NCBI GenBank assembly: GCA_963822835.1
Contig: CAWGIZ010000001.1
Span: 1 to 32,000 of the forward strand
DNA length: 32,000 nucleotides
Source of the DNA: an uncultured Alphaproteobacteria bacterium
GTDB taxonomy: Bacteria > Pseudomonadota > Alphaproteobacteria > CAVTAV01
Direction of reading: 5' to 3'
Of the stretch, positions 4,855 to 31,913 are shown piece by piece. The notes beneath the pieces were generated by a model. The model was given only the letters and a program-made list of their open reading frames with translations, did not search any database and was not told the origin of the DNA. The first letter of the stretch is position 1, and the number at the start of each line of letters is the position of its first letter. The position numbers and the translations under genes are program-made.

Positions 4855-4918
4855 CTGAGACTACCAACGGGGTGGAATGGAGCGACCAAACGATGACGCA
4901 GTCTCCATCACAAGAGAC

Positions 4919-5545: not shown

Positions 5546-5554
5546 GTGCCGGCG

Positions 5555-7672: not shown

Positions 7673-7696
7673 AGCCCCCGACCTGTGCCGGGGGCT
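7673..7696 (-). terminator. Probable intrinsic terminator of the G8/beta-helix gene
   Basis: Read on the minus strand: AGCCCCCG-gcacaggt-CGGGGGCT followed by TTTCGT. It has an 8-bp GC-rich stem and lies about 24 nt after the stop at 7720-7722. Confidence 0.55.
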
Positions 7697-7719
7697 CTTA
7701 CTCATAAGACAGGACCTGC

Positions 7720-10384: not shown

Positions 10385-10863
10385 TACGGTGATCCCCTTT
10401 ATCGGGACTGTGTGTCCCGATTTTTACCCTGGGTAGAGTTTTGCAACTTATGGACCGGTTTGCCAAGCCGCGTTCAGGCGCGCAACTCGCTCGCGCTCCG
10501 CATGCACCCGAGGGGGCTGGGATCAGTTGGCCCAAGCTGCAGCAGAATAGTTCTTGTTTTGGTGTCCGGAAGTCTGACGTCTCCGCTGGAGGCGCTTCAC
10601 CAAGCGGGCGGCGGCAAACTCGATTATGAAGAGCGCGATCGAACTGGCATCGGCTTCGCGGTTTGCCAGAGTATCTGGCGCCATTGCTCTGCCGAAAGAC
10701 AGTTCATTCGGATAATCCGCGTAATCGCCCTGTTCCCCTGTAGTGTTAAAGTAAGCGAAAATCGATCCCGCAATGGACATCAATCCGATATCCTGAATGA
10801 ACGAGAATCGGCAAAAAGATGAGCCATTGGACGCAGCGCCAATCAAAAAGGTGGGGGACCAAG

Positions 10864-12525
10864 ATGAGAAAACTGAAATCCGACGTGAGACGTTTCGCTT
10901 TCGTGCCGAGACTTTGCGCATTCGCCATTTCGGTCGTCCTGTGTTCCGTGTTCGTTGGGCCTGAACACCCCAAAGCCGCTGACGCCAACCACCAAAGCGA
11001 TAGCTGCGTCTCCTTGAAGAATTTTCAGGCTGTGGGACTGGATATCACTGATGCGCGCCTGATCGCTGCGGGGCCCGCGCCTGGCTCGAAGGCCGCTATA
11101 GAGGACGAAACGACTCTTCCGGAGCATTGTCTGGTGCGCGGAGTGATTTCGCGTCGCACAGGCGTGGACGGGAAGGAATACGGGATTGGCTTCGAACTCA
11201 GGATGCCGACTGATTGGAACGGTCGCTTCTTGTTTGAAGGCGGAGGCTATATGGACGGCGTGTCCTGGTTGGCCTACGGGTCATTATTCGGGCGCTTGTC
11301 TCCGGTTGCCTTGGCGCGAGGCTTCGCGGTCGTTCGAACGGACTCCGGTCATCTCAATTCCAAATCGGGAGCAACCGGCGCCAGTTTTTCTTTGGACCAG
11401 CAAGCACGGCTCGACTTCGGCTTCAACGCCCTCGACAAAGTCACGTTGCAGGCCAAAGCTCTCGTCAGGGCCTACTATGGGAGACGTCCGGATCGGGCCT
11501 ATTTCATGGGCTGCTCCAACGGTGGTCGTCAGGCCATGTTGATGGCCGAGCGTTTCCCGGAATATTTTGATGGCATCATCGCAGGTGATCCTTCCTTCAA
11601 TATCACGCACCTGTCGATATGGCTGACCTGGAACCAGAAGGTCCTTGCGAAGATAGCGCCTAAAGACGCGAGCGGCCGGCCGATCCTGTCGCGTGCCTTT
11701 TCGGATGACGATCTGAAATTGGTTAGCCGCGCGGTCGTGGCCCAGTGCGACAAGAAGGACGGTCTTGCCGATGGCATGATCAACGATGTTGCTGCATGCG
11801 ATTTCGATCCGTCTGTTCTCGCATGCAAAGGGCCGTCAAAGCAGCCGGATTGTCTGTCGCGCGATCAGGTAGCCGCGATGAAGCAGGTCTTCGAGGGGCC
11901 GAAGGACGCGGTCGGCAAACCGCTGTTTCCTCCATTTCCGTATGATACCGGTATCTCCACGACATGGCGTGGCACCCACCTTGGCACCTCCGATAGTTCA
12001 GATGCCAATTCCATGGAAGCGACCATTGGTCTCGACACGTTACGCTATTACTCGCTAACCCCGCCGGATCTTGACCTCAAGCCACAGGATCTCGACGTCG
12101 AGAAAGCCTGGAAGCAGGTGCGCCAGACGGCAGCGATGAACGACGCCGACTGGACGTTCATGAATAGCTTTGCCGCGCACGGCAAACTGATCCTGTATCA
12201 AGGTAACAGCGACTATGGTTTGTCTGCCAAGGGGCTGGCTGCGTGGTACGAAAAAGCCGGCCACGATACCGGAGGCCACATTCAGGATTGGGCGCGGCTG
12301 TTTCTCGTGCCCGGCATGGGGCACTGTAGTGGTGGCATGGCGACAGACGAATTTGATCCGCTGACGGCACTGGTGGATTGGGTCGAGCGCGGTCAGGTAC
12401 CGGACCGCATCGTGGCCAAGGGGAAGCAATTCCCTGGCCTTTCTCGCCCGCTTTGTCCTTGGCCGAAGGTTGCGCGCTATAAGGGCGGTCCGACTTCCAG
12501 TGCCGACAGTTTCGTTTGTGAATAA
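10864..12525 (+). CDS. Tannase/feruloyl esterase family alpha/beta hydrolase (secreted)
   Basis: Start at MRKLKSD, preceded by GGTGGGGGA. N-terminal hydrophobic signal. Family hallmarks: nucleophile motif GCSNGGRQAM, CDKKDGLADGMI, and C-terminal PGMGHCSGG. Confidence 0.8.
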   Translation: MRKLKSDVRRFAFVPRLCAFAISVVLCSVFVGPEHPKAADANHQSDSCVSLKNFQAVGLDITDARLIAAGPAPGSKAAIEDETTLPEHCLVRGVISRRTGVDGKEYGIGFELRMPTDWNGRFLFEGGGYMDGVSWLAYGSLFGRLSPVALARGFAVVRTDSGHLNSKSGATGASFSLDQQARLDFGFNALDKVTLQAKALVRAYYGRRPDRAYFMGCSNGGRQAMLMAERFPEYFDGIIAGDPSFNITHLSIWLTWNQKVLAKIAPKDASGRPILSRAFSDDDLKLVSRAVVAQCDKKDGLADGMINDVAACDFDPSVLACKGPSKQPDCLSRDQVAAMKQVFEGPKDAVGKPLFPPFPYDTGISTTWRGTHLGTSDSSDANSMEATIGLDTLRYYSLTPPDLDLKPQDLDVEKAWKQVRQTAAMNDADWTFMNSFAAHGKLILYQGNSDYGLSAKGLAAWYEKAGHDTGGHIQDWARLFLVPGMGHCSGGMATDEFDPLTALVDWVERGQVPDRIVAKGKQFPGLSRPLCPWPKVARYKGGPTSSADSFVCE

Positions 12526-12629: not shown

Positions 12630-13697
12630 TCAGGTCTTGTTCTTCGCCGTTTCCAGGCCGGTGGTCAGGCCCTCGTCTCCGGGGAAGTGTTTGAGACCGG
12701 ATTCGTAAGCGGCGCGGGCGTCGTCCCAACGGCCGAGGACACCGTAGGAGCGACCGAGGCGCAGCCATCCGTCGCGATCGTTTGGATTGGCTTCCAGCCT
12801 CGCCTTCAGTCCCTCGACCATGCTGTCGATGAACGCGTTCCGCTCCTGTGGGCTCAGGGCGTTGGCGGCTTGTATGTCAGCCTGGCTCGGGCCCTGTGGC
12901 GGCGTGGGCGTCGTCTGGGTGGCGGCAACGACCTGACTGGCCGGTTCGCCAAGTTTTGCCGCAGCCTCGTCGAGCCCCTTCTGGATTTCCGGACGCCAAG
13001 GCGAATCCGAAGGCAACTGGCCGGCGAGCTTGATCCAGGCATCGCGCGCCTGCGCGGCGCGGCCATTCTGCAAATCGTAGAGAGCGAGATTGTAGCGGGC
13101 GCGCAAATTTGACGGATCGGCCGCGAGGGCCTGTTGGAACACCTGCCTTGCTTCCTCGGTGACACGCCCGTCCGAACCCGCCATCAGGCTTTCGGCATAG
13201 CCGATCTTTACGTCAACATTGTCGGGCCATTTTTGCATTGTCTGCTGAAATATCTTTTTCGCGCGATCGGCGTTTTGCAGTGCGGTGTAAGACCGGCCAA
13301 GAAGTATCCAGCCGTTCAGGTCGTCTGGCGCGGCTTCCAGCTTTTTCTCCAGGCCGGCCGTCACCGATTCGAGCGACATGTCGGGATGTGGCGCCTCGTT
13401 ACGAGTGGACGTGGCCGGGGGCTGCAACGGGGAGTTCAGCTTGCCCTGATTTGCGATGAATGACGCGAGCGCGGCTTCGTCCTGATCGGCGGTCGTCGCG
13501 GTATCGGCGGGCATCGTCAAAGAGAACTTGAGCGCGGCGGGAATACCCGCGACCAGGACGGCAGCGCCGATCAGGAGCGCGCGCCGCGCCATCTGCCGAT
13601 CGCCGGACCTTGTCCAGGGCCAAAACGAATAGACGATCAGGCCGGCGCACAGTGCGGCAAGCACCAGCAGAACGGTCCATAGAAGATTGGAAGCCAT
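12630..13697 (-). CDS. ccmI: c-type cytochrome biogenesis protein CcmI/CycH-like (2 TM + periplasmic TPR)
   Basis: N-terminal helices LLWTVLLVLAALCAGLIVYSFWPW and ALLIGAAVLVAGIPAAL. TPR repeats: GWILLGRSYTALQNADRAKKIFQQTMQKWPDN, ARYNLALYDLQNGRAAQA, GWLRLGRSYGVLGRWDDARAAYESGLKHFPGD. Confidence 0.6.
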   Translation of the reverse strand: MASNLLWTVLLVLAALCAGLIVYSFWPWTRSGDRQMARRALLIGAAVLVAGIPAALKFSLTMPADTATTADQDEAALASFIANQGKLNSPLQPPATSTRNEAPHPDMSLESVTAGLEKKLEAAPDDLNGWILLGRSYTALQNADRAKKIFQQTMQKWPDNVDVKIGYAESLMAGSDGRVTEEARQVFQQALAADPSNLRARYNLALYDLQNGRAAQARDAWIKLAGQLPSDSPWRPEIQKGLDEAAAKLGEPASQVVAATQTTPTPPQGPSQADIQAANALSPQERNAFIDSMVEGLKARLEANPNDRDGWLRLGRSYGVLGRWDDARAAYESGLKHFPGDEGLTTGLETAKNKT

Positions 13698-13722: not shown

Positions 13723-14268
13723 CTACGGCGCCGTTCGAGCGAGCAACGGGCGGATGGACTTATCGATATCCGTTTCTCTCAGCCGCCCGCGATGTACATA
13801 TAGGACGGTGCCGTCGCCATTCACTATCAACGTCGTCGGGATGCTGTCGAAACCGAACTCGGCGAGAACCTTGCCGTCCGCATCCTCGCCGATCGCCGCA
13901 TACGGGTTGCCGAGCCGCGCGAGATAGCCGGCTGCCTCGCTTGATCGATCCATGTGGTCGATGCCGATGACGGGGACCATCCTGGCAAGATCGGTCAGCA
14001 GCGGATGTTCTACGGCACAGGGTCCACACCAGGACGCGAAGAAATTCAGCACGGCGACATGACCCGTCTTCAGATCGCGGTCCGTAAGCGTCCGGGCCGG
14101 ATTGTCCAGATGCGCGATCGCAAATGGCGGTATCCGACCGCCGCCCCCGTCTCCTTCATCGGATGCTGGCCGCAATCCAGAAACCACGAGAGCGAGTTGC
14201 GCGACCAGGGCCAGCGCCGCCAGCGAGAGAGTTAGGCGTCTCGGGGTCAAATGATGAGACTTGGACAT
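13723..14268 (-). CDS. TlpA/ResA/CcmG-like periplasmic thiol:disulfide oxidoreductase
   Basis: Thioredoxin motif LNFFASWCGPC. Membrane anchor LTLSLAALALVAQLALVV. cis-Pro region FGFDSIPTTLIVNGDG. The start chosen is MSKSHH (ATG 14268); the longer ORF starts at 14349 inside the AT-rich promoter region. Confidence 0.7.
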   Translation of the reverse strand: MSKSHHLTPRRLTLSLAALALVAQLALVVSGLRPASDEGDGGGGRIPPFAIAHLDNPARTLTDRDLKTGHVAVLNFFASWCGPCAVEHPLLTDLARMVPVIGIDHMDRSSEAAGYLARLGNPYAAIGEDADGKVLAEFGFDSIPTTLIVNGDGTVLYVHRGRLRETDIDKSIRPLLARTAP

Positions 14269-14608
14269 GTTCGCATTCTGAGCATCGACAGCCCGACAAG
14301 TAAAGTGCCACCCATTTTGAAATTGAGAACTATTTTTATTAGTAATCACATGATGAACACAGGAATGAATCGCATTTTAACGAAAATCATTTTGATAGTG
14401 ATGTATTATACATCAAATCATCGACATATTTTTGCCGGATTCCTTCATTATCACACTCAAATACTCAGATATTCACGAATAGGTAACAAGTAAAAGTAAA
14501 AGATCTTCGAAGGATCGTCGGTATCCGTTTGGGGCTTGGGATACGGTCGCGGCCGTAGGGGCATTTGGATGACTGACGAGGGGAATCGATCGAAAGCAGT
14601 AGCGATTA
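14269..14608. promoter_or_regulatory. AT-rich divergent promoter/leader region between the tlpA-like gene and the multiheme operon
   Basis: About 250 nt of strongly AT-rich sequence sit in an otherwise GC-rich window. It contains several short palindromes and direct repeats (GTAAAAGTAAAAG at about 14489-14501; CTTCGAAG). Confidence 0.5.
14399..14415. promoter_or_regulatory. Perfect 17-bp palindrome TGATGTAT-T-ATACATCA (candidate dimeric regulator operator)
   Basis: Read directly. 8-bp arms around a single central base, centred in the AT-rich divergent promoter region. Confidence 0.35.
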
Positions 14609-15931
14609 GTGTCAGTCATTTTCGGCAGTACGATTTTGACCTACGGCCTTCCAATCGGGGGACTGGTCGCGGGTTACATCATCATCCTTATGACCCGGGA
14701 TCGCCGCAGCAAGGCGGCGCTCCAGGAGGCACATGACGCCGGACTCACCGAGCCGGCGTCGTTGCATCCGGTCATCAATCAATCCTTGTGCATCGGCTGC
14801 ACGTCCTGTGTCCGGGCCTGCCCGGAGCAGTCCGTTCTCGGCATCGTCGGCGGCAAGGCCGAGTTGATCAATCCGACGCATTGCATCGGACATGGCGCCT
14901 GCCGGACCGCCTGTCCCATGGGCGCGATCACGCTTGTCTTCGGCTCGGCCACGCGGGGCGTCGACATTCCCCTCGTCGGCCCGAACTTCGAGACGAATAT
15001 TCCAGGCATCTTCATTGCCGGCGAACTCGGCGGAATGGGCCTGATCCGGAACGCGATCACCCAGGGCAAGCAGGCGATCGACGCCGTTCGGGGTTACCTG
15101 AAGGAGCGGGGCCGGCCGGCGAGTCACAAGGCCTACGACGTCGTCATCGTCGGCGCGGGGCCCGCCGGATTTTCAGCGTCCCTCGCCGCCAAGGAGCAAG
15201 GCCTGCGTTACGTCACTCTCGAGCAGGAAAGCTTCGGGGGTACGGTATCGCATTATCCGCGCGGCAAGATCGTGATGACGGCGCCTGTCGACCTACCGAT
15301 CGTCGGCAAGACGCGTTTCAAGGAAACGACCAAGGAGAACCTGCTCGACTTCTGGCAGAAGGTTCATCAGGAGAACGAGCTTCAGATCCACTATTCCGAA
15401 CGAGTCGAAACGATCGAGCGCATCGACGGTGGTTTCTCCGTGGTGACGGGTACCGGCAGTTATCCCGCCCGTTCGGTCCTGCTGTCGATCGGGCGCCGCG
15501 GCACCCCGCGCAAACTAGGCGTGGAGGGCGAAGATCTCTCCAAGGTCGTCTATCGCCTGATCGATCCCGAACAGTATCAGGGCCGTCACGTGCTCGTTGT
15601 CGGTGGAGGCGACAGCGCGCTGGAGGCGGCGACCTCGCTTGCCGACATGCCGGGCACGACGGTGAGTCTGAGCTATCGCGGCGACGCTTTCTCGCGCGCC
15701 AAGGCAAAAAACCGGGACAAGGTCGCCGACGCCGCAAAATCCGGCCGCCTCAGCGTACTTCTGAAATCGGAGGTGATGAAAGTCTCCGAGCACGACGTCT
15801 TACTCAGTGCTGGGGAAAAGGAGCTGGCTGTGCCGAACGACGCAGTGATCGTCTGCGCGGGGGGAGTCTTGCCGACGCCCTTCCTCAAGGACATCGGAAT
15901 CGAGGTCGAGACAAAATATGGCTCGGCCTGA
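14609..15931 (+). CDS. Membrane-anchored 2x[4Fe-4S] ferredoxin domain fused to an FAD/NAD(P)-dependent oxidoreductase (thioredoxin-reductase/YpdA-like)
   Basis: N-terminal TM: ILTYGLPIGGLVAGYIIILM. Two cluster motifs: CIGCTSCVRACP and CIGHGACRTACP. Dinucleotide motifs: VVIVGAGPAGFSASL and VLVVGGGDSALEAA. Putative GTG start at 14609. Confidence 0.75.
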   Translation: MSVIFGSTILTYGLPIGGLVAGYIIILMTRDRRSKAALQEAHDAGLTEPASLHPVINQSLCIGCTSCVRACPEQSVLGIVGGKAELINPTHCIGHGACRTACPMGAITLVFGSATRGVDIPLVGPNFETNIPGIFIAGELGGMGLIRNAITQGKQAIDAVRGYLKERGRPASHKAYDVVIVGAGPAGFSASLAAKEQGLRYVTLEQESFGGTVSHYPRGKIVMTAPVDLPIVGKTRFKETTKENLLDFWQKVHQENELQIHYSERVETIERIDGGFSVVTGTGSYPARSVLLSIGRRGTPRKLGVEGEDLSKVVYRLIDPEQYQGRHVLVVGGGDSALEAATSLADMPGTTVSLSYRGDAFSRAKAKNRDKVADAAKSGRLSVLLKSEVMKVSEHDVLLSAGEKELAVPNDAVIVCAGGVLPTPFLKDIGIEVETKYGSA

Positions 15932-17909
15932 CCGTCATACGCGCTCGATGACGGGTGCCTCGCTCGGCTTTCTGCTGGCGCTCGCGGCCACGCCATGCCT
16001 GGCCGCGAAAGCGGATATTGACGCAGCGCGGCAGGCGATCCTGCATCGCGACTACGCGTCGGCCGTCACGATTCTAAGCCGCGCCGCCGATCAGGGCGAT
16101 TTCGACGCGAGCTATCAACTGGCCAATCTCTATCGCAACGGCATGGGCGTTTCGAAGGATCAGGCGAAGGCCTTCGATCTCTATGGACGCGCCGCAAAGG
16201 CGGGGAACACCGAAGCCGCCTACAGTCTCGGCAAAATGTATGAATATGGTTGGGGCACGAGTGCCGATCCCGCACAGGCACGGCGGTGGTACGAGGTGTC
16301 GGCAAAGGCCGGAAACACGGCGGCAACCGCCAGTCTGGCAAGCCTCGAGAAACACACGGCAGATCTTGTCGAGCACTCGCTCGCCGATGCCGCCGGCACC
16401 GACGATATCGGGGATATCCGACGGTTGCTCGATCAGGGCACCGATCCAAACAAGCCGGACAAGTTCGGGCGTACGCCGCTGACCGAGGCCGTCACGCATG
16501 CGAGGCCCGATGTCGCGAAACTTTTACTCGCTCACGGCGCGGCGCCGGATGCCGCGAACGCTTCGGGCGACACGGCGCTGACTCTTGCGGCGGAATCCGG
16601 GGACACGGAAACCGTACGCGCGCTTCTTAAGGCACGAGCGAAAGTCGACCAGACAAACCGGGCGGGCGCGACACCGCTCGTCATCGCCGCGACGGGCGGC
16701 AAGTCAGGAATCGTGACCGTGCTGCTCGCGGCGGGCGCATCCATCAACGCGAAAGATCCGCTTGGCCGCACCGCTCTCGACATCGCGCTCCAGAAGAATC
16801 AGCCGCAGATGGTCGCGGCTTTGAGGAAGGCGGGGGCAACCGAGACGACGGACGCGCGCAGCAACGCCGAGCGCACCGGCCTTGCATCGATCGCAGAGAG
16901 CAATCCAGCCTTCTTCAAGGGTTGGACGCCGCTGATGATAGCGACCTGGCGCGACCGGCCGGATCTGGTCAAGTCTCTGCTCCCGTCGTCCGATCTCAAG
17001 GCAAAGAACCCGGCCGGCCAGACGGCGCTCACCATCGCCGCCGCGCAGGGCCATGCGGCCGTCGCCCGGTTGCTGCTCGGAGAGGCAAGCGACGAAGGCT
17101 GCAACCGCGATTCCGCCTGCCATCCTCTGCTTGCTGCGGTGAGCGCCGGCGACGTGGAGATGATCGATCTGCTGGTCCCCGCCTATCGGAATACGCCGAG
17201 CTTTCCGTCCGTGCTGAATTCGGCACTTGCCGCGGCGATTTCAAAGCAGCGCTGGCCCGTCACCTTGGAGTTGTTGAAATCGGGCGCAAAACTGCAATCG
17301 GCGAAAGGGGAGATTTCTCCGCTGGTATCGGCTGCCCCAGCCGCGCCGGCGGAACTGATCGCCGCCCTGGCCGATCGCGGCCTCGATATCGATGCGACCG
17401 ACAGTGCAGGCCGGTCGGCGCTTATTCTCGCGGCGCAGAACGGCCGGACGGCGACGGCCTCGTTACTGATTGCGCGCCACGCCGATCTCAATCATCTGGA
17501 TTCGCTTCATCAATCCGCGCTCATGAAGGCGGCGCGCTACGGCCATGCCGATATCGTCAAGCTGCTCGTCGGGGCGGGTGCCAATCTCGCGCTTGCGACC
17601 GAGACGGGGAACACCGCCCTCATGCTCGCCTCCGAGGCCGGCAGGACAGAATCCGCCACGGCGCTCCTGCGCGTTTCGAATGCCGTAGACACCAAGAACG
17701 ACGTCGGCGACACCGCGCTGATCCTGGCTGCCCGCAATGGTCATAAGGATATCGTCGCGGCGCTCTTGAAGGCCGGCGCCAACCCTCGCCTGAAAAACAA
17801 CCGCCGGCAGGAGGCGCTGGACGTGGCCCCTGCCGGCGAGACCGAGCTTCGAAAATCGATTTCCGAAGCGAAAGCTTCCCGCTCCTGGATTTCGGAGATT
17901 CTGCAATGA
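15918..17909 (+). CDS. Periplasmic Sel1-repeat + ankyrin-repeat protein
   Basis: Signal peptide: ...MTGASLGFLLALAATPCLAAKA. Sel1 repeats: YQLANLYRNGMGVSKDQAKAFDLYGRAAKAGN and YSLGKMYEYGWGTSADPAQARRWYEVSAKAGN. These are followed by roughly a dozen ANK repeats (GRTPLTEAV..., GDTALTLAAESGDTETVRALLKARAKVD, GNTALMLASEAG..., GDTALILAARNGHKDIVAALLKAGANP). The start overlaps the upstream gene by 14 nt; an alternative ATG is at 15948. Confidence 0.8.
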   Translation: MARPDRHTRSMTGASLGFLLALAATPCLAAKADIDAARQAILHRDYASAVTILSRAADQGDFDASYQLANLYRNGMGVSKDQAKAFDLYGRAAKAGNTEAAYSLGKMYEYGWGTSADPAQARRWYEVSAKAGNTAATASLASLEKHTADLVEHSLADAAGTDDIGDIRRLLDQGTDPNKPDKFGRTPLTEAVTHARPDVAKLLLAHGAAPDAANASGDTALTLAAESGDTETVRALLKARAKVDQTNRAGATPLVIAATGGKSGIVTVLLAAGASINAKDPLGRTALDIALQKNQPQMVAALRKAGATETTDARSNAERTGLASIAESNPAFFKGWTPLMIATWRDRPDLVKSLLPSSDLKAKNPAGQTALTIAAAQGHAAVARLLLGEASDEGCNRDSACHPLLAAVSAGDVEMIDLLVPAYRNTPSFPSVLNSALAAAISKQRWPVTLELLKSGAKLQSAKGEISPLVSAAPAAPAELIAALADRGLDIDATDSAGRSALILAAQNGRTATASLLIARHADLNHLDSLHQSALMKAARYGHADIVKLLVGAGANLALATETGNTALMLASEAGRTESATALLRVSNAVDTKNDVGDTALILAARNGHKDIVAALLKAGANPRLKNNRRQEALDVAPAGETELRKSISEAKASRSWISEILQ

Positions 17910-18832
17910 CGACCAACGCCATGACCGCGACGATCGAAAGGCCGACAGCCGCCCCTAAATCCGCCGCGAGGAGGCCGGCGCCCCTCCGCCGCAAACTGTC
18001 CCGCTCCGTGCCCTGGATCTTCGGGATCTCGGTCGCCTTGGTGCTTGTCGTCGGTTATCGCCTTCGGCACCTCGATCTGGTGACGGCAGAAAGCGGCATC
18101 GGCTATTGGTTCGGTATCGCGGGAGCGTCGCTGATGGGTTTGCTGCTCGTCTATCCGCTGCGCAAACGCGTGAAGGCGCTCGCTGTGCTCGGCGGGGTTC
18201 GCTTCTGGTTCAACACCCATATGATGTTCGGCATCCTCGGGCCGGCGCTGATTCTGCTTCACTGTAACTTTCGTCTCGGATCGACGAACAGCAATGTCGC
18301 GCTGTTCTCGATGCTGATCGTGGCCGGCAGCGGACTGATCGGCCGCTTCATCTATGTCCGCATCCACCACGGCCTGTCCGAGCGCAAGGTGGACTTCGCG
18401 GAACTGCGCAAGGAACTCGTTCAGAGCCGGGACGAGGCGAGCGATCTCTTTGCGCTGGCTCCCTCCGTGAAGACTATTCTTTCGGGCTATTCGGATCGAA
18501 TTCTGGCGGCGCGCGGCAATTTCTTTGCGACATTCCTCAAATTACCCGTCCGCCACCTTGACGGAACCCTGACCGGATTACGCGTTCGCGGGTTGGCGAA
18601 ACGCGAAGTTCGGGCGAATGCCGCGACCGCCGGTCTCAGCAATCGCGAGGCCCGCGACGCAACGCGGCGAATCCGCCAGCACACCAGACGCTTCATCGCG
18701 GACTCGCGCCAGGTCGCGAATTTCTCGTTCTATGAGCGGCTGTTTTCGCTTTGGCACGTCGCTCATATCCCTCTGTTCGTCGCACTCGTGGGAGCCGCGA
18801 TCTTCCACGTCATCGCCGTTCACAAATACTGA
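17906..18832 (+). CDS. Polytopic inner-membrane protein with conserved His residues in TM helices (possible b-haem/quinone-interacting electron-entry module)
   Basis: ATGA overlap with the upstream stop (17906-17909). At least 4 hydrophobic helices: VPWIFGISVALVLVVGY, GYWFGIAGASLMGLLLVYPL, FNTHMMFGILGPALILLHC, VALFSMLIVAGSGLIGRFIY, plus the C-terminal HVAHIPLFVALVGAAIFHVIAV. I recognise no family with confidence. Confidence 0.6.
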   Translation: MTTNAMTATIERPTAAPKSAARRPAPLRRKLSRSVPWIFGISVALVLVVGYRLRHLDLVTAESGIGYWFGIAGASLMGLLLVYPLRKRVKALAVLGGVRFWFNTHMMFGILGPALILLHCNFRLGSTNSNVALFSMLIVAGSGLIGRFIYVRIHHGLSERKVDFAELRKELVQSRDEASDLFALAPSVKTILSGYSDRILAARGNFFATFLKLPVRHLDGTLTGLRVRGLAKREVRANAATAGLSNREARDATRRIRQHTRRFIADSRQVANFSFYERLFSLWHVAHIPLFVALVGAAIFHVIAVHKY

Positions 18833-18848
18833 CGGGGTCTCGGCGCGC

Positions 18849-20417
18849 ATGGGCTTCAACCGCACACTCCGTCTCTGGGCTCTGGCCGTGATCGCGCTAC
18901 TTGGCGCGACGGCGGCGCACGCCCAGAATCTGGAGCGGTTGGTGATGCCCGGGCCGCTGACTGCGCCGCACGCCAAGTTCGAGAGCGACTGCAACCAGTG
19001 CCATTCGCCCTACAGCAAGCAGACGCAGAACACGCTGTGCCTCTCCTGCCACAAGGACGTGGCGGCGGACATGAAGGCGAAGACTGGCTTCCACGGCCGT
19101 TCGTCTTCGGTCGCGGGCGTCGAGTGCAAATCCTGCCATACCGATCACAAGGGCCGGGATTTCAATATCGTCGGGCTGGACCGGGAATCCTTCGATCACA
19201 GCGCGACCGATTTTCCGCTCACCGGCGCGCACGCCAAAGCGAACTGCACACAGTGTCACGCCTCCGGCAAGAAGTTCCGCGAGGCCGAGAAGGACTGCGT
19301 AGCGTGCCATAAATCCGATGACGTTCATAAAGGATCGATGGGCGCGAATTGCGCCGAATGCCACACCACGGCGACGTGGTCGGTTTCCGGGTTCGATCAT
19401 TCGAAGACCAAGTTCCCGCTGACCGGCAAACACGCCAAGGTCGATTGCGCAGCGTGTCACCCTAATCGTGCCTATCGCGGGACACCTGTCGCCTGTGCGG
19501 CCTGTCACATCGTCGACGATGCGCACGGCGGCCGCTTCGGTACAAAATGCGAGACGTGCCATTCACCGGCCGCATGGAAGTCGGTCTCGTTCGATCACAA
19601 CAAGGACACCAAATTCCCATTGCGCGGAGCGCATGGCGGCCTCGCCTGCAACAGCTGCCACGTGAATCCCAAGGCCGATCTGAAGCTGCCGACGACTTGC
19701 GTCTCCTGCCATTCGATCCAGGATGTTCACAAAGGCCGGAACGGCACGAAATGCGCCGATTGCCATAATGAGCGCAGCTGGAAGACCGTCTCCTTCGATC
19801 ACGGCAAGGACACGCGCTTCCCGCTCCGTGGTGCACATGCGGGGCTGCAATGCACGGACTGCCATCATGGCAATCCGGCTCAGGAAAAACTCTCCACGAC
19901 CTGCTTCTCGTGCCACGCCGGTGATGATCCTCATAACAAGCAGCTCGGCGAACGCTGCGACACGTGTCATGGGGTTACAAATTGGTCGAGTGATGTTCGT
20001 TTCGATCACGACCTGACCAGTTTCCCGTTGCTCGGCCTTCATGCGGCGGTGGCCTGCGAATCCTGCCACGTGACTCTCGCCTTCAAGGATGCCAAGGCGG
20101 GCTGCTTCGATTGTCACAAGGCCGACGACGTCCACAAGGGAACGCTCGGCGACAACTGCGCCTCCTGCCACAACCCCAATGGCTGGGACCACTGGCAGTT
20201 CGATCACGCCACGCAGACCGACTTTCCTCTGACCGGCTCGCACAAGGATATCGCCTGCAAGGAATGCCATCACGAGCCGGTCTACAAAAAGGCCAGCCAA
20301 AGCGAGACCTGCTACTCGTGTCACGCCAAGGACGATGAGCATGCGGGCCAGTTCGGCCATCGCTGCGAACAGTGCCATCAGACCGACAGCTTCAAGAATG
20401 TGAGGATCCGACGATGA
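18849..20417 (+). CDS. 21-haem c-type cytochrome built from seven c7/c3-type trihaem modules
   Basis: Start at MGFNRTLRLWALAVIALLGATAAHAQ (signal peptide); the track ORF from 18618 overlaps the previous gene. I count 21 CXXCH motifs. The unit FDH..T.FPL.G.H....C..CH...(~20)...C..CH..DD.H.G..G..C..CH....W recurs 7 times. Confidence 0.85.
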   Translation: MGFNRTLRLWALAVIALLGATAAHAQNLERLVMPGPLTAPHAKFESDCNQCHSPYSKQTQNTLCLSCHKDVAADMKAKTGFHGRSSSVAGVECKSCHTDHKGRDFNIVGLDRESFDHSATDFPLTGAHAKANCTQCHASGKKFREAEKDCVACHKSDDVHKGSMGANCAECHTTATWSVSGFDHSKTKFPLTGKHAKVDCAACHPNRAYRGTPVACAACHIVDDAHGGRFGTKCETCHSPAAWKSVSFDHNKDTKFPLRGAHGGLACNSCHVNPKADLKLPTTCVSCHSIQDVHKGRNGTKCADCHNERSWKTVSFDHGKDTRFPLRGAHAGLQCTDCHHGNPAQEKLSTTCFSCHAGDDPHNKQLGERCDTCHGVTNWSSDVRFDHDLTSFPLLGLHAAVACESCHVTLAFKDAKAGCFDCHKADDVHKGTLGDNCASCHNPNGWDHWQFDHATQTDFPLTGSHKDIACKECHHEPVYKKASQSETCYSCHAKDDEHAGQFGHRCEQCHQTDSFKNVRIRR

Positions 20418-22310
20418 CCCGACGGCTTTCTCTTCACTACGTGCTCGGCCTGGTCATGGCGGCCTTGGTTCTGGCCCTGCTGGCCTGCACGCCGCGTGCG
20501 TCGCTAGGGGCCGAGGTATCCCGCGACTTCGACCACTTTTCGACCGGCTTCCCGTTGGAGGATGGCCATGCCGGCGTTCCATGCGAGAGCTGCCACGTGA
20601 ACGGCGTCTTCGCGGGCACGCCTCGGCGATGTGCTCAATGCCACCAGCGTGGCGGGCCGATCAATGCCGAGGCAAAACCGGTCAATCACATCAACACGAC
20701 GGATGACTGCGAATCCTGCCATACGCTTCGAAACTTTACGAAGACGTCGAGAGTGGACCACGGCTCCGTCATAGGCCCGTGCGCGAGCTGTCACAACAAT
20801 GTCGTCGCCGAGGGCAAGTCGCCGACACATCTTCAAAGCTCCAACAATTGCGACGACTGCCATACCACGACGGTCTGGAACGATGTCCGTTTCGATCATA
20901 CCGGCGTGACCGCACCCTGCGTCAGCTGCCACAACGGCGCCACCGCCACCGGCAAGAACACGACGCATATCAGCACCACCGACCAGTGCGACGATTGCCA
21001 TACGACATTGAGATGGAATCCCGTATCTCGCGTCGACCATGCGGACGTCCTGGGCACCTGCTTCAGCTGCCATAACGGCACCACGGCCACGGGCAAGAAC
21101 GTCACTCACGTCCAGAGCACCAACAATTGTGACGATTGCCACACGACGACCGCCTGGACACCGGCGACGTTCGATCACACGGGCATCACGGGAAGCTGCG
21201 CGAGCTGCCACAACGGCACCACCGCGACCGGCAAGAGCGCAACGCATATCACTACGAATACGGTTTGCGAGGATTGCCATACCACGACGGCATGGTCGCC
21301 GGTCATTCGTGTGGACCACATAGACGTCGTCGGAACTTGCTTCAGCTGTCACAACGGCACGACGGCCACCGGCAAGTCCCCCACCCACATTCAGAGTCGA
21401 ACACCTGCGACAGCTGCCACACGACGGCGGCCTGGTCGCCCGCGAACGTCAATCACGACAACATCACGGGAAGCTGCTTCAGCTGCCACAACGGCACGAC
21501 GGCCACAGGCAAGAACGCCACGCATATCAACACGACCAATCTCTGCGAGGATTGCCATTCCGTCGTCGCGTGGAATCCCGTCTCCAAGGTCGATCATGCC
21601 GACGTGGTGGGAACCTGCTACAGCTGTCACAACGGCACGACAGCCACGGGCAAAGGCCCGACCCATCTCAACACGAGCAATAATTGCGACGACTGCCATG
21701 TGACGACGGTCTGGACCGATGTCCGGTTCGACCACACGGGTGTCACGGGCACCTGTTCGAGCTGCCACAACGGCACGACGGCCACGGGCAAAGGCGCGAC
21801 GCATATCCTGACGAACGCCGAGTGCGATGGCTGCCACACAACACTGGCCTGGACGCCGGCGAATTTCGACCACGCACTGGTCACTGGATCCTGCTCGAGC
21901 TGCCATAACGGAACCACCGCAACCGGTAAGTCCGCGACGCATTTCGTGACGACCGTGGAATGCGATTCCTGCCATACCATCAATAGCTGGGCCTTCACGC
22001 ATTTCACGCACACTTCACCGAACTATCCGGGTGACCATCGTTCCAGCGTCGGATGCAATGACTGCCATACATCGAACAGCCAGACGATCGCCTGGCCAAT
22101 CCGACCTATGCGCCCGATTGCGCCGCCTGCCACGCCAACCAGTACAGGGCCGGCGAGCACCGCAAGACCATCAGTCCGGCAACGAACTACACGGTAAGTG
22201 AACTACGCGACTGTTCCGGCGCGTGCCACACCTACACAGACACCACTCTGACGACGATTTCGCGGAGCCGGACAGGCCATCACCGTCCGTCCGATGGAAG
22301 TTTCGATTGA
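20414..22310 (+). pseudogene. Multihaem cytochrome (23 CXXCH + one CX3CH) with nine tandem doubled-CXXCH modules; reading frame broken by two 1-nt deletions
   Basis: ATGA overlap with the upstream stop, with GAGGAT as SD. Signal/lipobox-like sequence: MTRRLSLHYVLGLVMAALVLALLAC. The frame changes at about 21396-21400: ...GKSPTHIQS| continues as SNTCDSCHTTAAW in the frame of ORF 21136..22197. It changes again at about 22096-22101: ...SNSQTIAW| continues as PNPTYAPDCAACHANQYRAGEHRK...YTVSELRDCSGACHTYTD...SDGSFD*, with the stop at 22308-22310. Confidence 0.75.
20756..22004 (+). repeat. Nine tandem ~138-141-nt coding repeats (46-47-aa doubled-CXXCH modules)
   Basis: Module consensus: DH..V.G.C.SCHNGTTATGK..THI.T...CDDCHTT.AW.P..(V/F). 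Strings such as AGCTGCCACAACGGCACCAC(G/C)GCCAC(C/G)GGCAAG recur at the DNA level. Confidence 0.8.
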
Positions 22311-24467
22311 TGCAGCGGGCTGGGGAGCACGAGGCAATAGGTTCTGTCATGCGACGCTTTCTGGGTTTCGTGCCGCATATCTGTATGGCGCTTCTGTCAA
22401 CAACGGCATGTCTTGCCTTCGCCGGCCCGGCTTCGGCCTCGGTGCTCGAACAGGCGGATGTCCGGGAGAGTGATAGAGGCTTCCAGCTGCGGATTGGCCT
22501 TTCCATCCCGATGGGATTTCAGCGTGTTTCACCGCAGGGGCCGGCCAGGGAATTCATCATCGAGCTCCTGCCGCGTCCGACCGGGCAGGCCATCGACGAG
22601 GCAACAGAACGCTCTCAGGATCACATTGGCTTCGACAAATCGACGTCTGCGCCCATACAGGAGGTGCTGTACGACGGGTTGAATACGGGCCGGCCGACGA
22701 TCACGCTCCGGCTGACGCGCGCCGCAACGATCTCCGTCCGCAACGACGCGGATCTGAAGTCGTTGATCGTCGACATCGCGCCGGTCGGCATCGTGAAGTC
22801 ATTGGCCGGGGCGCCTAGCTTCGACGACAGCGTGTCCCAGATCGATCTTTCCGCCCAGCCGGTCATGAAGGAGGCGAAGCAGGCCCTGATCGACGGCCAT
22901 CTCGATCGCGCGGTTCAGCTTTTCACCAAGATCGTCGAGAGCGGCGACGGTCCGCTGCGCCGCGAAGCTCTTGAACTTCTCGGCCTGTCGCGCGAGCGCA
23001 ATCATCAACTGGCGCAAGCCGTCGCGGAATATAGCCGTTACCTCAAGGACTACCCGATAGGCCCGGACTTCGGATCGGGTGCGCCAGCGTCTCTCCGCCC
23101 TCGTCACGATCGACAAGACGCCTGCGGCAACCGCCAGCCAGGAAGTGCGCAAACCCAAGCCGGAAAAGAAGTGGCGTACCGAAGCGGACGGCAGTCTGGC
23201 GCAGTATTACTACCGGAATACGGTCAATCCGCCGGGCGGCCCGAACCAGGTCACGCAATCCGCGCTTACCACGAATGTCGATGCCCGGGTGCGGGCACGG
23301 AGCGACAATTACGACTTACGGGCGCTCTTTGTCGGCAGCTACGACGCCGATTTCCTGTCGCTCGGAACGAATGTCAAACGGCTTTATAACGCGACGATCG
23401 AGCTTCGCGACCTGAAACGGGGGCTCTATGGCAAGTTCGGCCGTCAGACGAGCAACACGGGCGGCGTGTTCGGCCGGTTCGACGGCCTGCAACTTTCCGC
23501 CGACATTCTGGATCACCTCGCGGTGAAGGGATTCTTCGGCTATCCGGTCGAGAGCAGCCGGGATGTCTCGATCAACAGCGAACGCAAGCTGTTCGGCGGT
23601 GGTCTCGACTTCAAGAATGTGATCGGTTCGTGGTCCTTCGGCACCTACTTCGTCGAACAGACCAATACCGGCCTGATCGACCGGCGCGCGGTGGGGGCCG
23701 AAGTCAAGTATTTCGAGGCCGGGAAATCGCTGTACGGGCTGCTCGATTACGACATCTTCTTCAAGGAACTCAGCACCGCCTTCGTGATGGGCAGCTACAG
23801 CTTCGGCCAGAAGACGACGATCAGCGCCACACTGGACTACCGCAAGGGACCATTCCTGACGACGGAGAACGCGATTGTCGGCCAGGGCGTAACCTCGCTT
23901 AGCGACCTCCTGGGCGTCTTCACGCCGACCGAGATCTATCAGTTGGCCCTTGACCGCACCGCGACAAGCAAATCCGCGACGCTGGGATTGACGCAGGTAC
24001 TGAACGACCGGCTGTCGCTCTATTCCGATTTTACGATGTCGAGCATCTCCGGCACGGTGGCGTCGGGCGGTGTCCCCGGCTTCAACGGAACCGGCACGAA
24101 CCTTTACTGGACGACACAACTCGTGGCGAGCGACCTGTTCCGGCAAGGAGCCATTTTCATCGGCGGCCTGCGTTACTCGAAGCTCGACCGTTACAACAGT
24201 TACGGCGTCACGCTGAATTACCGCTTCCCCGTAACCAGCAAGTTCCGCATCAATCCCCGCATGCTGGTCGACTACCGCGCCGGTCAAGGAGGCGCCAGCG
24301 ACCGTCTGCTGGTACGCCCCTGGGTCCGCATGGACTATCGCCTCAGCCGATGGATCCAGTTCGAATTCGAGGGCGGCGTGGAATGGTACGACGACATGCT
24401 CGTAAACCTCCCAAGCGCCACGACGACCGGCACGTTCTTCTATACGGGCTATCGGTTGATGTTCTGA
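22310..24467 (+). pseudogene. Outer-membrane protein: signal peptide + AMIN-like domain + TPR-like segment + C-terminal beta-barrel; split by a 1-nt insertion
   Basis: The start is either the ATG at 22310 (TGATG overlap with the upstream stop) or the ATG at 22349 (MRRFLGFVPHICMALLSTTACLAFAGPASA). AMIN-like sequence: RGFQLRIGL...RPTITLRLTRAATISVRNDADLKSLIVDIAP. ORF 22223..23389 loses sense after YLKDYPIGPD (about 23069). Frame +1 continues SDRVRQRLSALVTIDK... as ORF 23079..24467, with amphipathic beta-strands and a terminal ...FFYTGYRLMF (aromatic C-terminus typical of OMP barrels). Confidence 0.65.
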
Positions 24468-24644: not shown

Positions 24645-26201
24645 GTGAAACTAGTGCTGCCGCCGCGCATGTCGGCGTCCCAGTTCGACGCGGCCTTGAA
24701 GGCCATGGCGAAGATCGTGGGCGAAGAATGGGTCCTCAACAGCGACGAGGACCGCTACACCTATCTGGATGCCTTCGCGCTGGATGACGGTTCGTCGCAC
24801 GCTCCGTCGGCCATCGTCGCGCCGGACAGCGTCGAGCAGATCCAGGCCGTGGTGAAGACCGCCAACGAATACAAGCTGCCCATCTGGCCCATCGCACGCG
24901 GTAAGAATTACGGCTATGGCGGCGCGGCCCCTGAGATGCCCGGCACGGTCGTTCTCGATCTCTCGCGCATGAACCGCGTGTTGGAGGTCAATGAAAAGAA
25001 CGGCTATTGCCTGATCGAGCCCGGCGTCGGCTTTTTCGATCTCTACGACTACCTCACCGCGCACAAGATCAATCTCTGGATGTCGGTGCCCGGAAACTCG
25101 CTCGGCAGCGTCGCCGGCAATGCCCTGGAGCGCGGCGTCGGACCGCAGCCCTACGGCCTTCATACGGCGCATATCTGCGGCCTCGAGGTCGTGCTGCCGA
25201 CGGGCGAACTGGTGCGCACCGGCACCGGCGCGATGGCGAACAGCCAGACATGGAACCTGTCGCCGTACAATTACGGCCCTACCTGGGACCAGATGTTCTG
25301 CCAGTCCAATTTCGGCATCGTCACCAAGATGGGGTTCTGGCTGATGCCGGCCCCCGAGGCGACGATGAGCCTGCATGTGTCGCTGCCCCGGGAAGAGGAT
25401 CTGGGATGGGTGGTCGAGCGCCTGCATCCGCTTCGCCTGCGCGGTGTCCTCGGTCAGGACGTCGGTTTCAGGAACTATATCGCCATCGCCGCCGGCCGTT
25501 CGCAGCGCGAAGAATGGTACCAGGGCACCGGCCCCATGCCGGCGGATGCCGCCGCCGCCATGCGCAAGAAGCTCGGCATCGGCTGGTGGACGTTCGATAT
25601 CACGCTCTATGGCTACGAAGAGGTGATGGCGGCCAATGCCAAGATCATTTCGGCCGCGATCGAGGACGGTCTCGATACGAAGCCGGTCTGGACCACGTGG
25701 CGTCAGGGCGATCCTATCGAGCGATCGGGCGCCGGCATCCCCCATACGCGCAGCCTGCAACGCCTGAACTGGATGGGCGGACGCGGGGCGCATCTGGGCT
25801 TTTCCCCGACGCTGCCGCCGGATGGCGACAAGGTGCAGGCTCAATACCAACGCGCCAAGAAGCGGTTCGAGGAATACGGCATCGACTATTACGGCTCCTT
25901 CACGTTGAGCCACCGGTCGGTCACCAACGTCAATATGATCCTGTTCAACCGGGACGACCACGTGGTGACCGAGAATATCGACAAACTGTTCCATGTGCTG
26001 GTCGCGGATGCCGCCGCTCAAGGGTATGGTGAGTACCGGACCCATCTGAGCTATATGGACGAGGTCGCAAAGACCTTCAATTTCAATGACAACGCGCTTT
26101 GGCGGCTGAACGAGCGGATCAAGGACACGCTGGATCCGGCCGGTATTCTGGCGCCCGGCAAACAAGGCATATGGCCGGCGGCCTACAGGAGGGGACGGTG
26201 A
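24645..26201 (+). CDS. pchF: VAO/PCMH-family FAD flavoprotein, 4-cresol dehydrogenase (p-cresol methylhydroxylase) flavoprotein subunit-like
   Basis: GTG start preceded by GGAGAGGAGGGG. It aligns from memory along its length with Pseudomonas putida PchF (e.g. HAPSAIVAPDSVEQIQAVVKTANEYKLPIWPIARGKNYGYGGAAP; GYGPTWDQMFCQSNFGIVTKMGFWLMP; DPAGILAPGKQGI). Length is 518 aa. Confidence 0.8.
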   Translation: MKLVLPPRMSASQFDAALKAMAKIVGEEWVLNSDEDRYTYLDAFALDDGSSHAPSAIVAPDSVEQIQAVVKTANEYKLPIWPIARGKNYGYGGAAPEMPGTVVLDLSRMNRVLEVNEKNGYCLIEPGVGFFDLYDYLTAHKINLWMSVPGNSLGSVAGNALERGVGPQPYGLHTAHICGLEVVLPTGELVRTGTGAMANSQTWNLSPYNYGPTWDQMFCQSNFGIVTKMGFWLMPAPEATMSLHVSLPREEDLGWVVERLHPLRLRGVLGQDVGFRNYIAIAAGRSQREEWYQGTGPMPADAAAAMRKKLGIGWWTFDITLYGYEEVMAANAKIISAAIEDGLDTKPVWTTWRQGDPIERSGAGIPHTRSLQRLNWMGGRGAHLGFSPTLPPDGDKVQAQYQRAKKRFEEYGIDYYGSFTLSHRSVTNVNMILFNRDDHVVTENIDKLFHVLVADAAAQGYGEYRTHLSYMDEVAKTFNFNDNALWRLNERIKDTLDPAGILAPGKQGIWPAAYRRGR

Positions 26202-26524
26202 TGCGCAAATTCCTTGCCGCGGCTCTGCCGCTGCTGGCCGTCGCGACGTTTGCCGTGTCTGTTAACGCGGCCGAACAGCAATCCGCGGGCGCCGCGCTCT
26301 ATCATCATGAATGCGTCCCCTGCCATGCGGCTGGCGCGACCGCCAGCATCATGCTGGCCAAGCGAGTGGGCAAGGACAAGGCTCTCCTCACCCAACGCGA
26401 CGATCTGGACCCAGACTATATCCGGACGGTGGTGCGCAGAGGCATCAACAGCATGATGCCGTTGTCGCGGGTACAGGTGACCGACGACCAGCTCAACGAG
26501 ATCATTCACTTCCTGACGCACTGA
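26201..26524 (+). CDS. pchC: Monohaem cytochrome c subunit of the flavocytochrome (PchC-like)
   Basis: TGATG overlap with the pchF stop. Signal peptide: MRKFLAAALPLLAVATFAVSVNA. A single CVPCH motif with a distal Met candidate (INSMMPL). Confidence 0.7.
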   Translation: MRKFLAAALPLLAVATFAVSVNAAEQQSAGAALYHHECVPCHAAGATASIMLAKRVGKDKALLTQRDDLDPDYIRTVVRRGINSMMPLSRVQVTDDQLNEIIHFLTH

Positions 26525-26631
26525 TCCGGCGCCGAAGCGCTTCTATCCGCTCGGGCTACCTAATGCTTGGCGGTTCGGCGCTTCTGGCGCAAGATGGCTC
26601 AGGGACAAGAGCCATTGGGGGCGGTTGGATC

Positions 26632-30353: not shown

Positions 30354-30370
30354 GACCGCCGCCGGCAAAC

Positions 30371-31870: not shown

Positions 31871-31913
31871 CTCTTTCCCCCCAAAGCCGACCCGGCCGGA
31901 ATTCCGGCCCAAC

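Follow-up and report, generated by a model that had tools for sequence, protein, structure and literature searches.

The PCC3 family of porin-cytochrome gene clusters was named and modelled by He et al. in 2017 (PMC5566968), and it has been followed up in papers on Gallionellaceae, Sideroxydans and Leptothrix to 2026. Its genes stand in the order inner-membrane protein (IMP), periplasmic cytochrome, extracellular cytochrome and porin, as in Slit_1446-1449 of S. lithotrophicus ES-1, with further examples at Slit_0867-0870 of the same strain and in Leptothrix cholodnii SP-6. The IMP has about 300 amino acids (aa) and five transmembrane (TM) helices, with an SGxxG motif on TM4 and a Wx3Hx13H motif on each of TM3 and TM5 (PMC5566968). 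The periplasmic cytochrome has a median of 21 haems, falls into classes of 21, 24 and 27 haems at about 25-27 aa per haem, and in the published example is built from seven repeats of 66 aa. The second cytochrome is a low-complexity protein, rich in small residues and variable in haem number (PMC5566968), and the porin of L. cholodnii is predicted to have 22 strands. Here we analysed a 32,000-nt stretch of DNA from an uncultured alphaproteobacterium (hereafter the window), which holds a block of six genes at positions 14609-24467, all on the forward strand. An earlier note on this DNA had proposed that the block may be a distinct type of conduit, but the last four genes are likely a PCC3-type cluster, predicted to form an electron-transfer chain of about 44 haems that spans the Gram-negative envelope, and so do not represent a new type. 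The six genes and the two divergent genes beside them are as follows.

12630-13697, reverse strand: CycH/CcmI-like TPR protein, a cytochrome c maturation accessory (Pfam TPR_CcmH_CycH, 1.1e-34)
13723-14349, reverse strand: DsbE/CcmG-like periplasmic thiol:disulfide oxidoreductase (NCBIfam TIGR00385 dsbE, 1.9e-34; Pfam Redoxin)
14609-15931, forward strand: gene 1, membrane-anchored ferredoxin/flavoprotein fusion (Pfam Pyr_redox_3, 8.4e-41, and Fer4_10)
15918-17909, forward strand: gene 2, secreted (periplasmic) protein of Sel1 and ankyrin repeats (Pfam Ank_2, 1e-66; Sel1, 8.4e-17)
17906-18832, forward strand: gene 3, PCC3 IMP with five TM helices, a putative dihaem b-type cytochrome (motifs and AlphaFold2 (AF2) model)
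18849-20417, forward strand: gene 4, periplasmic 21-haem cytochrome c (21 CXXCH; Pfam Cytochrome_C7 and c3_2; signal peptide)
20414-22310, forward strand: gene 5, Thr-rich repeat multihaem cytochrome (the PCC3 'extracellular' cytochrome), frame-broken (three-frame translation and repair)
22310-24467, forward strand: gene 6, outer-membrane TPR/22-strand barrel protein (the PCC3 'porin'), frame-broken (repair; AF2 model of an orthologue)

The map of open reading frames (ORFs) bears out the six co-directional genes that the earlier note had described, and its junctions are all correct: a 14-nt overlap at 15918-15931, ATGA at 17906, a 16-nt gap at 18833-18848, ATGA at 20414 and TGATG at 22308-22312. 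Its descriptions of gene 2 as a Sel1/ankyrin protein (Pfam matches to both repeat types), of gene 3 as a polytopic membrane protein with histidines (six are invariant in the family alignment) and of gene 4 as a 21-haem cytochrome also agree with our results. It overlooked that genes 5 and 6 are both frame-broken in this record. A scan of the window for promoters and terminators gave signals at chance level only.

We filed genes 3-6 as PCC3 because they match the published family in motifs, size, TM helices, haem number, repeats, barrel and order. Gene 3 encodes 308 aa, and the AF2 model together with hydropathy places five hydrophobic helices at about residues 27-52, 65-93, 98-119, 127-156 and 280-307. 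The model (predicted local distance difference test, pLDDT, 77) also has a helical insert of about 120 residues between TM4 and TM5 that is predicted to be cytoplasmic. Three motifs are invariant in 26 diverse homologues, namely W101-x3-H105-x13-H119, S142-G143-x2-G146 and W283-x3-H287-x13-H301, which are the two Wx3Hx13H motifs and the SGxxG motif of the PCC3 IMP. In the predicted topology each HX13H helix crosses the membrane from the cytoplasm to the periplasm, and the model would put H105 and H287 near the cytoplasm and H119 and H301 near the periplasm, as is classic for a stacked pair of b-haems. The protein matches no Pfam or NCBIfam family, and its profile found nothing among the PDB sequences. 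The family is nevertheless large, with more than 1500 matches in a word-indexed search and, in an exhaustive search counted as clusters at 50% identity, 3581 at E<=1e-3 and 2239 at E<=1e-10.

The two cytochromes, which both contain cytochrome c7/c3 domains by Pfam, agree with the family as well. Gene 4 has 21 CXXCH motifs with a spacing period of 16-18/18/33, giving 24.9 aa per haem in seven trihaem c7-like units of about 67 aa, and 21 haems are found in 55 of the 76 complete orthologues; a search of the PDB sequences with this protein gave zero matches. Gene 5 corresponds to the low-complexity cytochrome of variable haem number. After repair it encodes 632 aa without an internal stop, in dihaem units of 46-47 aa that are rich in Thr (16.6%), Ser, Ala and Gly, and its DNA contains a 279-nt tandem repeat in 3.5 copies. 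The at least 23 haems that the earlier note had given it stand once the frame is restored (23 CXXCH plus one CXXXCH), although not as one ORF in the window. The gene 5 product is predicted to be extracellular, and its haem number ranges from 9 to 89 across orthologues. The highest value comes from an Omnitrophota locus (L007:12815-19261, titled as a metagenome-assembled genome, or MAG), in which the orthologue is a 2148-aa ORF with 89 CXXCH motifs, slightly above the 85-haem protein that was the largest number to the knowledge of He et al. (PMC5566968).

The repaired gene 6 encodes 718 aa without an internal stop and is 83% identical to its orthologue in the intact reference relative, L001 (ENA contig_26642). 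An AF2 model made for this 83%-identical orthologue family (first sequence P0121; pLDDT 85.7) shows a signal peptide, a beta-sandwich at residues 46-158, TPR helices at 183-268 and 22 strands at 289-717. The number of strands is that predicted for the PCC3 porin of L. cholodnii, and the gene lies beside the cytochromes as expected. Of the AMIN, TPR and barrel parts that had been named from the sequence, the TPR and barrel hold and the N-terminal domain is a beta-sandwich in the model; Pfam gives a weak TPR match alone and none to AMIN even at E<=1. Foldseek matched the orthologue model to outer-membrane barrels with probability 1.0, but these matches are generic (template-modelling scores of 0.2-0.5), the PDB profile matches are confined to the TPR region, and the sole NCBIfam match is a weak BamD TPR. 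Fold and profile searches thus gave the barrel no specific family or solved relative. Its N-terminal domain varies among lineages. In gammaproteobacterial loci the beta-sandwich forms a separate ORF for a secreted protein of about 165 aa between genes 5 and 6 (E = 8e-12), for example at L034:14109-14591, L019:14499-15002 and L055:14116-14607, plus 33 further loci, and the barrel proteins there often have a SPOR domain in its place. Judging from the sequences, this arrangement is a domain fission or fusion event.

The order of genes 3-4-5-6 in the window is that of the IMP, periplasmic cytochrome, extracellular cytochrome and porin. The same arrangement is found in a Gallionellaceae MAG (L060), where the two cytochromes have 24 and 49 haems and the identity to the window is 45% for gene 3, 45% for gene 4, 49% for gene 5 and 29% for gene 6. 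A search seeded with L060 reached Sulfuricella, Dechloromonas and Gallionellales, and none of the 120 matches listed was named as ES-1. There are also differences from the family as published. The published definition has four genes, whereas here and in most relatives an Fe-S flavoprotein is added, often together with a Sel1/ankyrin protein and CycH/DsbE-like proteins. The host is not a known Fe(II) oxidiser but appears to be an uncultured alphaproteobacterium that probably lives heterotrophically, and genes 5 and 6 are broken in this record.

We carried out the homology and synteny search that the earlier note had suggested, using the 81 closest loci (L001 and 80 related loci from a genome-wide scan seeded by the gene 3 alignment). 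Except for L021 ('bacterium isolate'), all of them have MAG titles. Many phyla are represented, with Alphaproteobacteria (among them Sphingomonadales, Emcibacteraceae and Hyphomicrobiaceae), Betaproteobacteria, Gammaproteobacteria (among them Woeseiaceae, Chromatiaceae, Thiohalomonadales and Thiodiazotropha), Gallionellaceae, Nitrospinaceae, Omnitrophota, Planctomycetales and Nitrospirae. In 80 of the 81 loci the gene after gene 3 is gene 4, and in all 49 loci that hold the whole of genes 3-6 these are collinear on one strand with gene 6 last. Gene 1 is linked to gene 3 in 75/81 loci, lying upstream and divergent in 53, upstream and co-directional in 17, and downstream in 5. That it stays linked despite this shifting position argues for functional coupling. 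Together with the domain content, such strongly conserved linkage fits the claim of the earlier note that the block follows the logic of a trans-envelope conduit with parts other than those of Mtr. Gene 2 accompanies gene 1 in 49/81 loci.

Genes for cytochrome c maturation also recur beside the block. A CycH-like ORF lies within 40 of the 81 loci and a DsbE-like one within 13. In Woeseiaceae-type loci the CycH-like gene (Ig_CycH plus TPR_CcmH_CycH) is directly upstream of gene 3, and in the window and its closest relatives, including L001, a CycH-like/DsbE-like pair is divergently adjacent to gene 1; the DsbE-like gene adjoining the block is conserved in L001, L002, L006, L008 and L010. The DsbE-like protein of the window scores 118.7 bits against TIGR00385, just below the cut-off of 123.15. 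It is probable that the CycH/CcmI-like protein is part of the unit, and with its DsbE-like neighbour it probably helps to load the roughly 45 c-haems. We found no mention of the flavoprotein, Sel1/ankyrin and CycH/DsbE-like genes in the searchable PCC3 literature, and as far as we can tell this extended gene set has not been reported so far.

Other known conduits are less similar. The MtrCAB, MtoAB and PioAB systems also combine a periplasmic multihaem cytochrome with an outer-membrane beta-barrel and, in Mtr, an outer cytochrome. However, gene 4 scored 29.6 bits and the gene 5 orthologue 90.6 bits with the DmsE/MtrA model TIGR03508, whose cut-off is 192.2, and the OmcA/MtrC model TIGR03507 gave 17.9 bits against 209.3. 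No stretch matched the Pfam models MtrC-MtrF_II-IV at threshold; gene 4 scored 24.9 bits with a 30-bit cut-off, and the whole of the repaired gene 5 reached 53.9 bits. MtrB has 26 strands, whereas the gene 6 barrel has 22 and is joined to TPR and beta-sandwich domains. The haems number 21 plus 23-24 rather than 10 plus 10, and the place of CymA in the inner membrane is taken by a putative b-type protein together with a flavoprotein. The Geobacter complexes (OmbB-OmaB-OmcB, ExtABCD and others) likewise encode a porin together with periplasmic and outer multihaem cytochromes, but to our knowledge they encode no inner-membrane protein or flavoprotein. The only NCBIfam match of this kind was to the GSU2203 decahaem model, at 62.9 bits against 325, and by the definition of He et al. 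PCC3 has no homology with the Geobacter porin-cytochrome complexes (PMC5566968). The PCC4 family of the same study is closer in its membrane component, as it has a conserved five-TM IMP with the same motif pattern and, in subgroup II, a gene for an Fe-S protein directly upstream of it (PMC5566968). It differs in having three smaller periplasmic cytochromes and no extracellular one, an IMP of another family, and an Fe-S protein of the pfam13247 type in place of a flavoprotein fusion.

The protein encoded by gene 1 combines ferredoxin-type Fe-S domains (Pfam Fer4 and Fer4_10) with a Pyr_redox_3 domain (8.4e-41), behind an N-terminal hydrophobic 19-mer (Kyte-Doolittle hydropathy 1.96) and a run of basic residues. 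From this helix and the basic residues after it, the redox domains would face the cytoplasm. The description of gene 1 as a TM-anchored oxidoreductase with two [4Fe-4S] clusters and an FAD/NAD(P) domain was therefore right about the hydrophobic helix and both kinds of domain, but only the first Fe-S motif, CxxCxxCxxxCP, is all-Cys. The second, at residues 92-103, is CxxHxxCxxxCP, and its His is kept in 65 of 67 orthologues, which suggests a His-ligated [4Fe-4S] or [3Fe-4S] cluster at the probable electron exit. The flavoprotein part has the two-Rossmann FAD/NAD(P) fold with GxGxxG-type motifs (GAGPAG at residue 182 and GGGDSA at residue 332). Seven of the eight Cys of the gene 1 protein lie inside the two Fe-S motifs, and a redox-active CxxC is absent. 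The closest solved relatives of the flavoprotein part are YpdA/Bdr (7a7b), thioredoxin reductase (TrxR) and TrxR-type ferredoxin-NADP reductases (FNRs). Because it scores 155 bits against the NCBIfam YpdA model, below the equivalog cut-off of 339.9, we assign it only at the level of the superfamily of TrxR-like FNR/YpdA flavoproteins. The N-terminus of gene 2 is signal-like in the window protein and in 31 of 37 orthologues, and we infer that the protein serves as a periplasmic Sel1/ankyrin scaffold or chaperone.

This combination of genes 1 and 3 resembles NADPH oxidase (NOX) and ferric reductase, and also the split MsrQ-Fre system, in which two HX13H motifs on two TM helices hold two stacked b-haems and a cytoplasmic NAD(P)H flavoprotein supplies the electrons. 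The analogy between the two HX13H motifs and NOX/ferric reductase was pointed out by He et al. (PMC5566968). Homology is not demonstrable, as Ferric_reduct matched one of 26 family members (E = 1.8) and no PDB fold matched. Gene 1 is moreover a separate membrane-anchored polypeptide, TrxR-like with two Fe-S motifs, rather than a NOX FNR-type domain, and the acceptor would be a 21-haem wire rather than O2 or a periplasmic enzyme.

Based on these features, we propose a path for electrons through the complex, which in biochemical terms is a proposal for every organism that has the cluster. Gene 1, on the cytoplasmic face, would take electrons from NAD(P)H to FAD and on to its two Fe-S clusters. 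Gene 3 probably binds two b-haems, through H105/H287 and H119/H301, and would carry the electrons across the inner membrane. The 21 haems of gene 4, in seven trihaem units, would be long enough to bridge the periplasm, and gene 4 would meet the 23-24 haems of gene 5 at or through the 22-strand barrel of gene 6, whose beta-sandwich and TPR domains would face the periplasm. From gene 5 the electrons would pass to an external acceptor. This NOX/ferric-reductase-like outward route, which would bypass quinones, is the wiring that we prefer, but we put it forward tentatively. We prefer the outward direction because it is downhill and aided by the membrane potential, while electrons moving inward to NAD(P)+ would have to go steeply uphill and a coupling device is absent. 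We are more doubtful about the stricter idea that the PCC3 IMP is the membrane half of a split NOX-like enzyme with gene 1, instead of the quinol-linked cytochrome b of the published model.

Several results weigh against this proposal. Gene 3 is a putative cytochrome b and its binding of haem b a prediction: kinship with such proteins appears in Pfam only below threshold, with DUF4405 in 14/26 members (best E 0.0045), Ni_hydr_CYTB in 4/26 and Ferric_reduct in the single member mentioned above, and a Foldseek comparison of the gene 3 model with PDB folds gave nothing significant (best E = 1.0). We also looked for a fusion of genes 1 and 3 among the long members of the gene 3 family and found none; the N-terminal extensions of these proteins are TPR, SPOR or unannotated rather than flavoprotein. 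A lipobox-like signal is present in only 4 of 61 gene 5 orthologues. The interruption of genes 5 and 6 in the window may mean that this organism has no working system. Fe(II) lowers the expression of both PCC3 clusters in S. lithotrophicus ES-1, where the extracellular cytochrome has gone undetected in proteomes. PCC3 is still termed functionally unverified in the literature of 2025-2026. The possibility, raised in the earlier note, that the block is already a characterised system is thus true as to description and not as to function.

The cluster could instead run inward, as in the original model of He et al., in which the outer cytochrome oxidises Fe(II), minerals or another donor and the quinone pool receives the electrons from the IMP; gene 1 would then have an accessory role such as repair, regulation or reverse electron flow. 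We consider this joint reading unlikely. In its favour, the family was first found in Fe(II) oxidisers and occurs commonly in Gallionellaceae and Leptothrix, and Sideroxydans CL21 raised expression of the IMP of one of its PCC3 copies while oxidising iron. In addition, 6/81 loci show no gene 1, though some of those contigs are short upstream of gene 3. Against it stands the linkage of a TrxR-like NAD(P)H:ferredoxin-type flavoprotein to the cluster in the other 75 loci, across phyla. By established bioenergetics, moreover, electrons from Fe(II) would have to be driven uphill to reach NAD(P)+, as would electrons that cross from the positive to the negative side of the membrane, and a coupling module is absent. 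The fall of ES-1 transcripts on Fe(II) and the neighbourhood in the window, which looks heterotrophic (tannase, a flavocytochrome like p-cresol methylhydroxylase (PCMH) and amidohydrolases), also disfavour it. Far less probable is that gene 6 exports a polymer in the manner of PgaA, BcsC or AlgK/AlgE, leaving the cytochromes as a periplasmic store or reductase chain without extracellular transfer. PgaA and BcsC are indeed built from a TPR region joined to a barrel, the Foldseek matches include AlgE (rank 27), and the missing gene 5 product in ES-1 proteomes would fit. The gene 6 orthologue, however, has no sequence match to PgaA, BcsC or AlgE models and no NCBIfam match to AlgK, and neither the weak BamD TPR match nor the TPR-limited PDB profile matches and generic Foldseek barrels point to an exporter. 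Polysaccharide-synthesis families have no Pfam or NCBIfam match among the scanned ORFs of the window, and the barrel gene closes the cytochrome block in every one of the 49 complete loci. Membership of the barrel in a polysaccharide-export pathway, which the earlier note had named as the outcome that would overturn its conduit, thus found no support in the NCBIfam, PDB profile or Foldseek searches.

A separate question is whether genes 5 and 6 are functional in this organism. The frame of gene 5 switches at about 21397, within CAGAG^TCG, and at about 22096, within TGGCC^AATCC, each equivalent to one missing base. Gene 6 has one extra base at about 23069, GAC[T]TCGG, which gives ORFs at 22223-23389 and 23079-24467. 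Searches by tblastn with the intact L001 orthologues accordingly found gene 5 in three frames of the window and gene 6 in two, and in the public record behind the window gene 6 is present only as a 462-aa C-terminal fragment (P0126). All three sites are associated with GANTC, the methylation motif of CcrM in Alphaproteobacteria, and long-read consensus errors concentrate at methylated motifs. The first site lies inside an existing GANTC (GAGTC), the second becomes GAATC if the missing base is G, and the third becomes GATTC (the L001 sequence) or GACTC once one base is removed. The joint chance of this coincidence is about 1.5e-5 by a strict count (arithmetic from rates) and 0.013 in a permissive test. 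The ratio of nonsynonymous to synonymous substitution rates (dN/dS) against L001 is 0.12 for gene 5 and 0.10 for gene 6, next to 0.08-0.11 for the intact genes, and the overall range of 0.08-0.12 points to purifying selection on all six. Related loci from Microflora Danica (MFD) MAGs (L002, L029, L033, L044 and L073) contain split genes of the cluster as well, and we presume from the flye-style names of their contigs that these are nanopore assemblies. In L002, just one of the four frame breaks is at GANTC, and we therefore take the methylation-motif explanation as suggestive for this window only. A frame change is also present in the gene 6 orthologue of L083 (positions 4480-4620), a metagenome contig with a scaffold-type name; it falls in the low-complexity linker that joins TPR and barrel (residues 277-280) and coincides with a 32-nt length difference from L001. 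We found no near-identical environmental contig to decide between error and mutation, the closest (L082-L084) having 73-78% DNA identity.

Since the indels fall at GANTC, the repaired genes are free of stops and dN/dS is low, an assembly or base-calling error is more likely than inactivation, and we regard it as the probable cause of the breaks. That the operon is a recently inactivated pseudogene cluster, with three real frameshifts disabling the outer cytochrome and the barrel, is unlikely by comparison but has points in its favour. All three indels lie within the 4.05 kb of genes 5-6, while about 24.6 kb of coding sequence elsewhere in the window is free of them by the ORF map and the GC3 (third-codon-position GC) frame plot; under an even error rate the chance of this is (4.05/28.6)^3, or about 0.003, although the test is post hoc. 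The deposited record itself has the truncated gene 6, L083 is an independent scaffold of a related lineage with a break in the gene 6 linker, and the breaks of L002 are mostly off the motif. What speaks for error is that a single-base repair at each site leaves both genes stop-free, that their dN/dS is like that of the intact genes, that the association of all three sites with GANTC is as expected from long-read errors at CcrM-methylated sites, and that split genes recur in the presumably nanopore-derived MFD loci. The clustering may itself have a technical origin, as the repeat number of gene 5 varies among relatives, and similar variation among strains in the sample would lower consensus quality locally. 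Programmed ribosomal frameshifting that regulates the outer components could be suspected from three frame changes in two adjacent genes and the broken gene 6 of L083, but it is very unlikely, close to negligible, because there is no slippery heptamer or known +1 motif at any of the three sites and in the close relatives L001, L003 and L004 each of the two genes reads through in one frame at the corresponding positions. The directions differ too, two of the changes being of the -1 type and one of the +1 type.

The rest of the window contains several other genes of note. Downstream of the block, at 24645-26524 on the forward strand, an FAD-linked oxidase (FAD_binding_4/FAD-oxidase_C, 518 aa) is followed immediately by a small monohaem cytochrome c (26201-26524; CVPCH, with a signal peptide), a pair that resembles a flavocytochrome of the PCMH type. 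A hint of a fourth frameshift at about 26.5 kb in the GC3 plot was rejected, as it reflects this separate small cytochrome gene. The ORF listed next, at 26311-28677, probably starts at about 26641, with a signal peptide. Further along, at 30371-31912 on the reverse strand, is a 513-aa multi-domain c-type cytochrome with SoxA/TsdA-like and cbb3-type cytochrome c domains, and a 284-aa ORF without a family match (29586-30440, reverse strand) overlaps its gene by 70 nt. Upstream of the block, the reverse strand at 1151-6538 encodes in a row a patatin-like phospholipase, an 846-aa TrkA_N/RyR-domain protein, an unannotated 208-aa ORF and a TIR-domain protein, which from their domains could be an anti-phage defence island. 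A 929-aa protein encoded at 7595-10384 on the reverse strand combines a G8 domain with a CEMIP-type beta-helix, an unusual architecture for bacteria, and its gene adjoins one for a tannase/feruloyl esterase (10819-12525).

Taken together, the window holds a known kind of cluster in which the two outer genes are probably mis-assembled rather than dead. PCC3 is among the most widespread predicted systems of extracellular electron transfer, judging from the 2239 clusters of its IMP, and the original idea that it oxidises Fe(II) is not supported by the transcriptomics of iron oxidisers. That the four core genes nearly always travel with an NAD(P)H-type Fe-S flavoprotein provides a concrete alternative, an outward wiring driven by pyridine nucleotides. 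The accessory genes, often Sel1/ankyrin and CcmI/DsbE-like, define a larger set for heterologous reconstitution. If the split NOX-like reading is true, the block would encode a quinone-independent, NAD(P)H-driven extracellular route by way of a wire of about 45 haems, and such a route, with its own set of apocytochrome chaperones, would occur widely among uncultured Proteobacteria, Nitrospinota, Omnitrophota and Planctomycetota.

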